Shown here one piece after another: positions 50,394-53,976 of a stretch of DNA of 64,000 bases. A program made the position numbers and the translations under genes. The notes below the pieces were generated by a model. It made no database searches, was not told the DNA's origin, and saw nothing but the letters and a program-made list of their open reading frames with translations. This DNA is from an uncultured Spirochaetota bacterium. Lineage in GTDB: Bacteria > Spirochaetota > Brevinematia > Brevinematales > JAOACQ01. The number at the start of each line of letters is the position of its first letter. Position 1 is the stretch's first letter. Where the stretch lies: positions 228,826 through 292,825 of the forward strand of contig CAWAOD010000013.1 in assembly GCA_963783575.1 (NCBI GenBank), read 5' to 3'.

Positions 50394-50644
50394 ATTAACT
50401 CCTCAATTAAACTTTATTGTTAGCAATAATTAGTATGCTATTTATAATAGCATAAATTCCGGAAATTATAAAGACATGAAGAACTGGAAAAAAGGATTCC
50501 TTTAATAAAAATTCAGTTTTCAGATCGGAATGGATATCATTCCGGAGGGAGTTTGTACAATTCTTCTCCGAATTCTCTCTGTTCATGTCTGAAAACCTTC
50601 CATTCTCAATCAAATATGACAGATTCCACTATGAATTGGGAAAT

Positions 50645-50846
50645 CAAAAAGAAAAATCACCCCTTCGCATAAACGCCATTTCATGTGCAGCAATCGGTTT
50701 ATACTGAGGTGATGTTATTTCATGTTTTATTAAAGATTTTCTTATTTTAAAAGAGCCTCACTTTGCAGTCCTGCTGCGTTAGGGTCGTGGCCCTCCGTGG
50801 CCGCGAAATACGAACAGATCGATTGATCATTATAGGGGAATAACAA
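50645..50846 (-). repeat. About 200-bp intergenic repeat, family C
   Basis: Reverse complement aligns with 26356-26557. Confidence 0.88.
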
Positions 50847-50947
50847 CTTTTTTATACCAAGTTCACTTATTTTCTTCAGAGTAGATAATCAGAAATGGCG
50901 CTCCTGCTGCGATGTTATGATAAAATGAGGAAATAAAAAAAGAAATT

Positions 50948-51179
50948 TTGACAGGTGAGGGAGATGGTATTAAACTCTGCCCGGATATACTCAAGATGGG
51001 TATAAAAAGGCAGAAGAAGGCTGGCTGCTCCCCTGGGATATAACGGGATTCTTTTTGAGAATACCGAATAAAGCCCGAAGCTGCGAATAGTCCAGCCTTC
51101 TTCCTTACCAACATTATGGGACCGGAGCAAAGCTCCTGAACCCGAATAGACGGATGGCTGCCATTACTCAGCCCGTCAA
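50948..51179 (+). ncRNA. Predicted bridge/seek RNA
   Basis: Closing stem TTGACAGGTGAG / CTCAGCCCGTCAA. 12-bp stem GAAGAAGGCTGG / CCAGCCTTCTTC encloses target-matching segments. A second GGG-hairpin-CCC loop has donor-matching segments. Folded by eye. Confidence 0.75.
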
Positions 51180-51236
51180 GGTGACTTTTTTATATTTCTT
51201 CTTAAGTATTCTAAAACATAAGAAGGAGAGTGTCAA

Positions 51237-52307
51237 ATGTATTACGGAGTTGATTTGCATTCGGATAATCTGAAGGTTGCGATTCTTGGGGATAACGAAA
51301 CTGAACCGAAAATATTCAGATCGAGCCTTGAACCAAAGTATTTTGAAAAGTTTTTAAGCCGGTTAACAAAAGATGATTACATTGCAGTAGAAGCATCAAC
51401 AAACACATTCTGGTTTTATGACCAGGTTAAACCTCTGGTCGCGGAATGTTATGTAATCAATCCCGGTAAATTCCAATTGGTTTCAAACTCAATGGTCAAG
51501 ACAGATAAGAGGGACGCTATCAGTATTGTAAGAATGCTTAAATATAGTGTAATTACCGGAGAACCTTTACATACCATTTATATACCTAATTTGGAAGTAA
51601 GGGAAATCCGCGGGCTATTTACAACATATAAGCTTTTTAAGACGGATATTGTCAGAATGAAAAACAGGATTCATTCATTATTAAAGCAGAACGGTTACAA
51701 ACAGGAACGGGAAAGCCTGAATGTTAAAGGTACAAAAGAACAAATTCTTCAGCTTGATTTAAGCGAAACTGTAAAATTTGAGATAAATCTATTGTACAAG
51801 CAGATGGAAGAAATGATTAACAGTGCTAATGAAATAAAGAAAGAGATCTTGGTAAAAGGCAAGATATTCAAAGAGGAAATAAAATTACTAATGAGTATAA
51901 AAGGCATTAGTCCATTTACCGCGATAGGAATAATGTCGGATGTGGCTGATATTAACCGTTTTAACAGTGTAAAAGACTTTTGTTCTTATCTGAGATCGGC
52001 TCCAAAAGTGGATTCCTCGAATAAAATGACGAAAATCGGAAAGCTTAATAAGAAGTCAAGACGTTTAACGATGGAGTTATTAATCCAGAGCATTCAACAC
52101 TTTCGGGATTGTAAGAAATTTAATTATTTTTATGAAAAGAAAAGTAAAGGTAAGTCAAAAGGCAAAGTCAGGGTTGCATTAGCAAGAAAAGTCATGGTAG
52201 CTATTTATCATATGCTTAAAAAGAAAGAGTTGTTTTACTACATTGATAAGAAGTGTTATGAAAGCAAAATGTGTGAGTACAATAATTTCTTAAAAAAAGC
52301 CGCTTAA
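51237..52307 (+). CDS. IS110-family DEDD recombinase/transposase
   Basis: YGVDLH, VEAS, KTDKRDA (DEDD), SIKGIS, APKVDSSN (catalytic Ser region), VALARK. Confidence 0.95.
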   Translation: MYYGVDLHSDNLKVAILGDNETEPKIFRSSLEPKYFEKFLSRLTKDDYIAVEASTNTFWFYDQVKPLVAECYVINPGKFQLVSNSMVKTDKRDAISIVRMLKYSVITGEPLHTIYIPNLEVREIRGLFTTYKLFKTDIVRMKNRIHSLLKQNGYKQERESLNVKGTKEQILQLDLSETVKFEINLLYKQMEEMINSANEIKKEILVKGKIFKEEIKLLMSIKGISPFTAIGIMSDVADINRFNSVKDFCSYLRSAPKVDSSNKMTKIGKLNKKSRRLTMELLIQSIQHFRDCKKFNYFYEKKSKGKSKGKVRVALARKVMVAIYHMLKKKELFYYIDKKCYESKMCEYNNFLKKAA

Positions 52308-52458
52308 ACTCTTTACTTTTATCATAGACGGGGGGCAGGATTTTGTACTCGATACTTTTCATCTCTTTGCCCTTGTGATTATTGATTGGGACGGAATTAT
52401 AAGTAGAAAAAATAGTTATAATATAAGGCAGTTCTATTCTGTTTCTTATGTTTTTATT

Positions 52459-53976
52459 TTAGATAATTAATATTTTATCAGATCGTACACTTCCTATTCT
52501 CATATTTACACCGGGTTTTCTTACAATTTGCTTTTCCCACTCAATATCTTCAATAACCCAAGTTTTCATATATTCAATTGACTCTTTAATTAATTTAACT
52601 AAATTTAATTTAACATTTTCAATTATTGCTTTCTCATCATAGACACCAACAAATATTTCATTGTGACCTTGTGTTTTATCAAAATCTTCATGAATCAATT
52701 TTATTCTATCATAAATATAATTACTAATTTTATTATTTGGATAATCACTACCTTTCACTATTCCTTTGTTTATTAATTTAAATATATAATCTTCTTGAAG
52801 ATTAAAATCATATGATATATAAACTGGACAACAAAACCCATTTTCCCATCCACCTGTTATTTTAATAATAAGTTCATTATTTAAATCAAGAATTATCTTG
52901 TATGCTGAGAACATCGAACTTAATGATAATTCCTCAAATACATTCATTATAATATTTTTAGTTTTATTTAATAATTCTACTTTTTTAGTTCTTTTTAAAT
53001 TTTCTTCTTCTTTTATTCTATGCAATTCTTCAATACTGCTAATGGTATCTTGTTTTTTATTCTTTATTTCAGCTAAGATATTATCAAATGTATCTTTACT
53101 TTGTTCAAATATAATTTTTTTATTTGTATTATTAAATATTTCCAAACGTTTTTTGTAATCTTTAATTAACATGTTTTTAACAAATGAACAAATCTCGGTT
53201 TTAAAATCAACCCGTTGAATTGTTGGAATTTCATCTTTTATTGCAACAACCAATTTTGCATATGGTTCGGAATACTGCTTGAACAACTCATAGCCCATAA
53301 TTTTATCATGTAATACACCGCCAATTTGGTAAATATTGATTGCTCTCCATGATTCTTCATCATTTTTTTCTTATCTAAACAAATATTCTGGTGGTGCATA
53401 CCTTAAAGTACCGAAAAACGGTTTATTTCCTAATATATCAGTAATTGTCGGATCATCAATTACTTTCATTACACCTAAATCCATTAAGACCAGATCGTTT
53501 TTATCATTAATCATAATATTTTCTGGTTTTATATCTCTATGGACAACCCCTATCTTTAATAATTCTTCAGTTACATTAAATAAAATGTTAAAAGTATTTT
53601 TTATACATTCCTCATCCTGAGCACCTTTATTTATTATATATTCTTTAAGAGTAATTCCGTTAATAAATTCCATAATAATAAAATAATATTTGTCAGATTT
53701 ATTTGATATGCTTCCACCATCTAATATATTTACTAAATTATTAATTTTGTGATCTATTAATTTTAATTCATGATCTACTCTTGCTTTTTCTGTTTCATCT
53801 CCATATTTTTCAATTATCTCATTATCAAATATTTTAATTGCAACAGAATTTCCATCCTGATCTGATCTAAATACAACAGCAGATTTACCGTATCCTAATA
53901 TTGAATTTATTGTATATCCTTTTATATTTATCTTTTTAAAAATTTCTAAATATTCTTCTGATTTTCTTTTATCCAT
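52459..53976 (-). pseudogene. Low-GC Hanks-type Ser/Thr kinase with a C-terminal extension and a single in-frame TAA at 53371-53373
   Basis: LGYGKSAVV, VAIK, HRDIKPEN, DLG, GTLRYAPPE. The frame continues *EKNDEESWRAINIYQIGGVLHD into ORF 52459-53298. Confidence 0.85.

Follow-up and report, generated by a model that had tools for sequence, protein, structure and literature searches.

An apparently active IS110/IS1111-family insertion sequence in a Spirochaetota genome, with a CG core and a guide RNA predicted in its left end

What directs an IS110/IS1111-family element to its insertion site, and can the answer be read from the element and its flanks? The question was raised by an insertion sequence (IS) in a stretch of 64,000 nt from an uncultured Spirochaetota bacterium (GenBank assembly GCA_963783575.1, contig CAWAOD010000013.1, positions 228,826 to 292,825 of the forward strand), for which a preliminary description had proposed a recombinase with an upstream bridge RNA and a GA crossover core. 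All coordinates given below are positions in this stretch (the window); the genome it belongs to amounts to 4.9 Mb in 18 contigs and is 89.85% complete. The element is genuine and is a member of a kind already described in 2024. We regard it as very probable that it is an apparently active IS110/IS1111-family IS, whose recombinase is directed by a bridge RNA (seekRNA) from its own left end. The analysis establishes the element boundaries, a CG core, a conserved RNA structure and covariation of the guides with the flanks.

Three copies of the element are present in the genome, with 99-100% identity and with common boundaries corresponding to 50912 and 52328. The junctions (element ends marked by slashes) read ..ctcctgctgcg/A..GA/cggggggcagga for the window copy (copy 1), ..ttcatgctgcg/../cggggggcgatt for the second copy and ..cccaagttgcg/../cggggagcaatt for the third. 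The recombinase frame is open in all three copies and the RNA region shows no differences among them, in agreement with the proposal that the element is intact. Relative to the window copy, the other two have 9 differences each, none of which creates a stop codon. In the second copy all 9 differences lie within 51296-51504; in copy 3 this holds for 8 of the 9, the remaining one being in the right end (52316, in the -35-like hexamer). Apart from 52316 in copy 3, the differences are concentrated in the first quarter of the gene, and at 7 of them the two other copies agree with each other against the window copy.

Both GA (50911-12 and 52327-28) and CG (50910-11 and 52329-30) are present at both ends, and because of this the element alone cannot choose between the two as the core. 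A blastn search of the genome with the left flank gave more than 20 partial or full copies of a repeat ending at 50911, 18 of which were aligned. Two of these 18 members hold the element and 16 are uninterrupted. All 16 uninterrupted copies read ..AATCAGAAATGGCGCTCATGCTGCG/GGGGGCGATTAAGCAGG.. (...CTGCG/GGG..., or GCTG-CG-GGGRGC). The overlap of the junctions with these empty sites is exactly CG; therefore the element runs from 50912 to 52328 and its target is ..GCTG-CG-GGGRGC... As reconstructed in this way, the empty site at the window locus is ..CTCCTGCTG-CG-GGGGGCAGGA. Comparison of the three insertions with the 16 empty sites indicates insertion at a 2-nt core that the element and its target have in common, with no duplication of the target.

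The preliminary description had assumed the same element and RNA but took GA as the core, with the ends placed at 50913 and 52326 and donor guides of 5 nt. GA is indeed found at both junctions, and the RNA strings GCTGCGA and ATAGA both finish in GA. However, a GA core predicts an empty site ...CTGCGACGGGG, and the GAC that it requires was found in none of the 16 empty paralogous sites. A search of the genome for the corresponding empty site TGCGACGGGGRGC, allowing at most 1 mismatch, returned a single, unrelated match. In addition, the dinucleotide that covaries across loops and junctions in the homologs (CG, TG or AG) is the one that follows N6, which is CG here, and the final A of GCTGCGA corresponds instead to the first base of the left end (the two agree in 26/27 loci, as A, T or G). 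A GA core is therefore hardly credible, and the junctions that were built on it have to be replaced. The preliminary description had itself named ends lying elsewhere than at GA as speaking against its model; the true ends were found one to two bases away. For genome annotation, this means that a GA/CG ambiguity of this sort can be resolved only with empty sites.

The core was also compared among relatives. A protein-alignment scan of metagenome contigs gave 44 loci, of which 30 have an upstream region that aligns to the same RNA. Two of these were dropped before guides and cores were counted (L033, in which the target loop is deleted, and L040, whose contig lacks the left end), and two were kept as misses in the guide counts (L048, with a mis-registered left junction, and L060, with a 3' strand 3 nt shorter). 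The core dinucleotide is identical in both loops in 28/28 loci (CG in 22, TG in 5 and AG in 1), and the loop core equals the left junction in 25/27 loci and the right junction in 25/27.

The sub-terminal inverted repeats that had been proposed form a perfect 10-bp pair (TATGATAAAA and TTTTATCATA; Table 1). The terminal extensions are CG plus ATGT (6) and GA (2); counting the repeat from ATGAT, in the style of IS4321, makes them 7 and 3. Homologs keep core-NNNN-TATGAT at the left end and TTGACT-TTTATCATAGA-core at the right end.

Inside the 325-nt left end, upstream of the gene, lies a structured RNA, which is predicted to span roughly from 50983 to about 51195. The minimum free energy (MFE) fold of 50980-51200 (-69.7 kcal/mol, z = -2.79) contains a 12-bp outer stem and GGG/CCC inner stems. 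The perfect 12-bp stem on which the preliminary description had relied is present, and so are its strings CTGCTCCCCT (51025-51034), GCTGCGA (51080-51086), AACAT (51110-51114) and ATAGA (51146-51150), all in their reported places. The layout guide-(U)GGG-hairpin-CCCG-guide occurs twice in the RNA and is conserved in homologs. Given the CG core, both loops fall into one register, CCCG-N6-core: the 3' strand reads CCCG-AAGCUG-CG-A in the target loop and CCCG-AAUAGA-CG-G in the donor loop.

The 5' guide of the target loop, CUGCUCCCC, pairs with G plus GGGGGCAG at copy 1 (8/9 plus one G:U), with G plus GGGGGCGA at copy 2 (via a G:U pair) and with G plus GGGAGCAA at copy 3 (8/9). The left flanks that face the 3' target guide are CTGCTG-CG, CATGCTG-CG and AAGTTG-CG in the three copies. 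Both strings proposed as donor guides do match the element ends, but the 3' match is longer than the 5 nt that had been claimed: with the CG core it becomes the contiguous 7-nt AUAGACG (5/6 left-donor bases plus core), and this correction strengthens the donor reading. No family was matched in an Rfam scan of 50500-52700 at E <= 1.

The preliminary description had suggested building a covariance model and testing whether guides covary with flanking targets, and both were done. The structure was scored as 18 named pairs on 28 sequences, as the automatic consensus of RNAalifold shifted the outer stem. The named pairs are kept in 87.4% of cells, compared to 78.5% in shuffles and 32-58% with the partners slid; 11/18 of them changed on both sides, and 0/500 shuffles came up to these values. 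In every relative that the covariance model, made from 23 sequences, picked up, down to 24% protein identity, the RNA precedes the gene. In the genome of the window, only the three copies reached genome-wide significance. One of the two excluded loci, L033 (a metagenome contig with the RNA at 225-321), is a relative with 64% identity that has lost its entire target-binding loop. It retains the donor loop and the gene, its right junction is AG instead of CG, and it is probably a decaying copy.

For the guide test, guide strands were extracted by alignment anchors and junctions by the conserved end motifs, and the guides of each element were compared with its own flanks and with the flanks of other groups. 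The right-target guide matched its own flanks at 6.67 of 9 positions versus 3.35 for other groups (24 loci), and the left-target guide at 3.70 versus 1.46 of 6 (27 loci). The right-donor guide matched at 4.37 versus 3.18 of 5 (27 loci), the background being high because the ends are conserved and the guide is only 5 nt. Each of the three observed means was reached in 0/10000 shuffles (one representative per group, 16-17 groups). The 5' donor guide changes along with the left end in homologs, as in the pairs ATGTT/AACAU, AGGTT/AACCU, TTGTT/AACAA, TTATT/AAUAA and TTTTT/AAAAA. The same guide-flank matches were seen in relatives from other genomes (L011, L012 and L013). An upstream non-coding RNA with separate target and donor loops, the strands of which match the insertion site and the element ends, is thus borne out at the sequence level, directly in this element and by covariation and conserved structure in its homologs.

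These data bear on a different explanation, namely that the left end serves the recombinase mRNA only as a leader or for regulation, that the target is set by the protein or by repeat homology and that the guide matches are due to chance. Two of the three insertions are in one repeat family, as such an explanation would have it. However, guides and flanks change together across the 16-17 independent groups, and close relatives with different guides are found in matching, different sites. L041 and L042 have 97.5% identical proteins; their left guides differ by T to C, and so do their left flanks. L049 and L068 share the left guide and have different right guides, each matching 8/9 of its own right flank. 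Copy 3, moreover, lies outside the repeat, at a well-matched site. We judge a mere leader region with chance matches to be highly improbable. The guide RNA may be reprogrammable, as the preliminary description had it; the case for this is one of natural variation (L041/L042).

The choice of site in this genome was then considered for the three copies. Two of them are inserted in the terminal hairpin GCGCTCC-TGCTGCG-GGGAGC of a repeat of approximately 270 nt; about 30 sites in the genome have the GAAATGGCG..CTGCG repeat end (copies are, for instance, L078-L093). The repeat contains long-range complementary segments, GTTGTTATTCC with GGAATAACAAC and CGCCATTTC with GAAATGGCG, and has two interior subtypes. 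Copy 3 is inserted in unrelated DNA with 2 mismatches to the 16-mer specified by the guides, a value tied with the six best unoccupied sites of the genome; for the remaining two targets the count is 3 and 4. Its position outside the repeat, at a site among the best matched, fits RNA-guided choice rather than repeat homology.

Several observations weigh against a recombinase guided by this RNA. The three real targets deviate from the guide-specified 16-mer at 2-4 positions, and 107 CG-core sites with at most 4 mismatches are unoccupied in the genome. The two loops differ by one base in the distance from the 5' guide to the GGG stem, and this distance also differs in the TG-core relatives L048 and L065. 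The 5' donor guide comprises only 5 nt and the element ends that it matches are conserved. Right flanks match their guide at 5/9 or less in 6/24 loci (L037, L045, L046, L055, L056 and L063), all on metagenome contigs, where off-target insertion and assembly joins cannot be told apart. Finally, the covariance model found no match in IS4321 (R751) or in the Halomontanus, Haloarcula, Azospirillum, Shigella ISSso6 and Enterococcus plasmid loci.

The recombinase was assigned to the IS110/IS1111 family of DEDD plus Ser enzymes in the preliminary description, and this assignment was confirmed. PF01548 (DEDD_Tnp_IS110, 37.6 bits) and PF02371 (Transposase_20, 49.3 bits) both scored above their cut-offs in Pfam, and D6, E52, D90, D93 and S261 are invariant in 36 relatives (81-44% identity). 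A profile of these 36 relatives aligned with the IS621 structure 8wt6 in two stretches (29.4 bits), which contain the DEDD motif and the YESG serine motif; the catalytic residues reported for IS621 are D11, E60, D102, D105 and S241 (PMC11208158). With IS4321 the profile gave one full-length stretch (37.5 bits). Both scores are too distant to decide the subgroup. Searches with the single protein gave nothing at E <= 0.01 among solved structures (phmmer), nothing above 30% identity among 72,556 plasmids and no relative among genome contigs. The protein therefore represents a remote branch of the family. In a large protein collection 288 relatives were found at E <= 1e-10, mostly on contigs of 1.2-2.5 kb. 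The clade, taken down to 24% protein identity, is present in several related genomes and on many metagenome contigs. The closest named relatives in the plasmid collection are on Halomontanus and Haloarcula plasmids (L109 and L110, 29% and 26.5% identity). These have gaps of 316-448 nt on both sides of the gene, which fits a remark in PMC11187229 that some diverged elements carry non-coding regions on either end. In the genome of the window there is also a fragment of a related recombinase gene (G000:C9:398616-399096, L004/L022), covering residues 209-355 with 64% protein identity.

Two promoters can be proposed. One is internal (Table 1), and at the same place before the RNA homologs have TTGACN or TTGGCN, 17 nt and TAnnnT. 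The other would be formed when the ends are joined: the circle junction is predicted to read ..TTTTATCATAGA-CG-ATGTTATGATAAAA (in short form ..ATCATAGA-CG-ATGTTATG..), and would bring TTTACT, as a putative -35, 17 nt from TATGAT, as a putative -10. A promoter formed at the circle junction has been described for the IS110 family (PMC11208160). One DNA sequencing run yielded two short contig pieces, both inside the element and covering no joint, and does not bear on circles or expression. Most homologs have TTGACT as the -35, and copy 3 has TTTAGT.

In the mechanism that we propose, the RNA would fold into two stem-loops, each with an internal loop bearing two guide strands, and AACAU of the 5' donor strand would pair with the bases that open the left end. 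The junction ..ATCATAGA-CG-ATGTTATG.. would recombine with the target ..GCTG-CG-GGGRGC.. at the shared CG, and exchange at CG would insert the element without duplication. By analogy with the family, we expect that the RNA is produced and that the recombinase binds it, that a circle is the intermediate, that the junction promoter is used and that Ser and DEDD residues carry out strand exchange.

It could be argued that the element is a true bridge-RNA IS that is no longer mobile in its own genome, a fixed relic. Only three copies are present, the genome has no perfect target while many near-matches are unoccupied, and the -35 of the would-be junction is TTTACT (TTTAGT in copy 3) versus TTGACT in relatives. 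The state of the three copies described above (open frames, identical RNA regions, 9 differences each and no stop codon) speaks against this, and we consider a relic unlikely. An apparently active, RNA-guided IS is the reading that we retain, and its features are collected in Table 1.

Table 1 Features of the element and its target site (window coordinates)
Feature	Position	Strand	Sequence or evidence
Left part of target	50642..50909	+	Multi-copy structured repeat of ~270 nt; ends in the hairpin split by the element, left target ..CTCCTGCTG
Left core	50910..50911	+	CG; overlap of both junctions with 16 empty paralogous sites, both RNA loops read CG
Insertion sequence proper	50912..52328	+	1417 bp, of which 325 nt form the left end and 21 nt the right end
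Left terminus	50912..50925	+	ATGT (right-donor bases), then sub-terminal inverted repeat TATGATAAAA (50916-50925)
Internal sigma-70-like promoter	50948..50976	+	TTGACA-17-TAAACT; promoter scan, 10/12 matches, putative function
Target-binding stem-loop	51013..51103	+	Outer 12-bp stem 51013-51024 / 51092-51103; inner GGG 51035-51037 / CCC 51074-51076; MFE fold
5' target guide	51025..51033	+	CUGCUCCCC; complementary to top strand, right side
3' target guide	51078..51086	+	AAGCUG + core CG + A; equals the left target and core, followed by the first element base
5' donor guide	51110..51114	+	AACAU; complementary to ATGTT, with which the left end begins
Donor-loop inner stem	51118..51143	+	GGG (51118-20) / CCC (51141-43) around small hairpin; pairs kept in 27-28/28 sequences
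3' donor guide	51145..51153	+	AAUAGA + core CG + G; right end ..CATAGA (5/6) + core + first base of right target
Recombinase gene	51237..52307	+	356 aa; DEDD (D6, E52, D90, D93) and Ser (S261)
Right terminus	52313..52328	+	-35-like TTTACT (52313-18), inverted repeat TTTTATCATA (52317-26), terminal GA
Right core and right target	52329..52340	+	CG at 52329-30, then GGGGGCAGGA

The repeat used as a target was also compared with Rfam. On the strand opposite to the IS it gave three sub-threshold matches to TwoAYGGAY (37.2, 35.3 and 27.5 bits, with a cut-off of 43), and only 1/16 fetched repeat copies was matched. TwoAYGGAY is described, in a 2026 preprint (10.64898/2026.09.22.753630), as a multi-copy structured element linked with repetitive extragenic palindrome (REP) arrays in Pseudomonas. 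That the repeat is a TwoAYGGAY RNA is unproven; the likeness is a lead, not an identification.

A second IS110-family lineage, with a recombinase 24-31% identical to the present one, has the same kind of upstream RNA and an AG core. It was found in the genome of the window (G000:C14:299996, C9:167941, C11:125126 and C16:218157; L097-L100) and in a further genome, G001 (L014, L017, L020, L023, L024, L026, L028 and L029). This lineage inserts at the Shine-Dalgarno-like sequence ..A(A/G)GG-AG. Its right end, ..CATAGG, together with the core restores AGGAG, and an ATG is present 5-7 nt past the core in 8/8 G001 copies; the downstream gene therefore keeps a ribosome-binding site.

RNA-guided bridge recombinases are under development as tools for programmable DNA insertion, excision and inversion. 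The element adds a compact system, consisting of a 356-aa protein and an RNA of approximately 200 nt, the four guides and core of which are readable from natural insertions. It comes with a set of about 27 relatives that have different guides and three cores (CG, TG and AG).

How, then, does the element relate to the known systems? The IS110 group has long left ends and inverted repeats of 2-3 bp, and the IS1111 group long right ends and repeats of 7-17 bp (PMC11208160); IS1111-type terminal extensions are 7 and 3 bp, and a few elements such as ISMtsp17 have the non-coding region upstream (PMC11187229). With IS621 the element shares the DEDD and Ser residues, a short right end and a long left end that encodes the RNA ahead of the gene (PMC11208160; PMC11208158). 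It also shares the target and donor loops with one bottom-left and one top-right strand each and the 2-nt core common to target and donor; its putative -35 in the right end and putative -10 in the left would correspond to those of IS621. Unlike in IS621, as it is portrayed in PMC11208160, both loops have the opposite strand order, the inverted repeat measures 10 bp instead of 2-3 bp, and the core is CG instead of CT. A conserved putative internal promoter precedes the RNA here, and the protein is very distant.

The order in which the complement of the top strand lies 5' of the bottom-strand match is that of the IS1111-type seekRNAs (ISEc11, ISKpn4 and ISPa11, as presented in PMC11187229), and the long sub-terminal inverted repeats and asymmetric terminal extensions are likewise shared with this type. 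The right end ATCATAGA resembles ACCATAGA of IS4321 (plasmid R751), and the non-coding region of IS4321 holds ..CCGGATAGATT.., which parallels CCCGAAUAGACG in the present element. However, the RNA is upstream of the gene, with only 21 nt downstream, in contrast to the IS1111 elements of PMC11187229. Like ISPpu9, ISPpu10 and other REP-occupying IS110-family elements, in so far as their targets are described, the element uses a short hairpin inside a multi-copy intergenic repeat; it differs from ISPpu9 and ISPpu10 in that the unit is structured and of approximately 270 nt, not a REP of approximately 35 nt, and in that one of the three copies is outside the repeat.

A further likeness concerns the base that follows the core. 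In the target guide it equals the first base of the left end, as noted above, and in the donor guide it agrees with the base that opens the right target in 15/26 loci. Both 3' strands therefore resemble the inserted junctions for one base more. The handshake guides of IS621 lie next to its top-strand guides (PMC11208158); the extra positions flank the bottom-strand guides here, mirroring that arrangement. We speculate that these handshake-like bases reflect either a reversed order of strand exchange or guides that are tuned to the inserted junctions for excision.

The element thus combines traits that mark different groups in the two founding papers, an upstream RNA on the one hand and IS1111-type strand order and ends on the other. 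We class it with the IS110 family taken broadly, without assigning a subgroup. The mix of traits is unusual, without being a first-order surprise. Tentatively, and less probably than not, the clade could represent a third architecture of bridge recombinases that has yet to be characterised; the features that may set it apart are a left-end RNA preceded by a conserved putative promoter of its own, IS1111-type strand order, ends like those of IS4321 and the positions that resemble the handshake of IS621.

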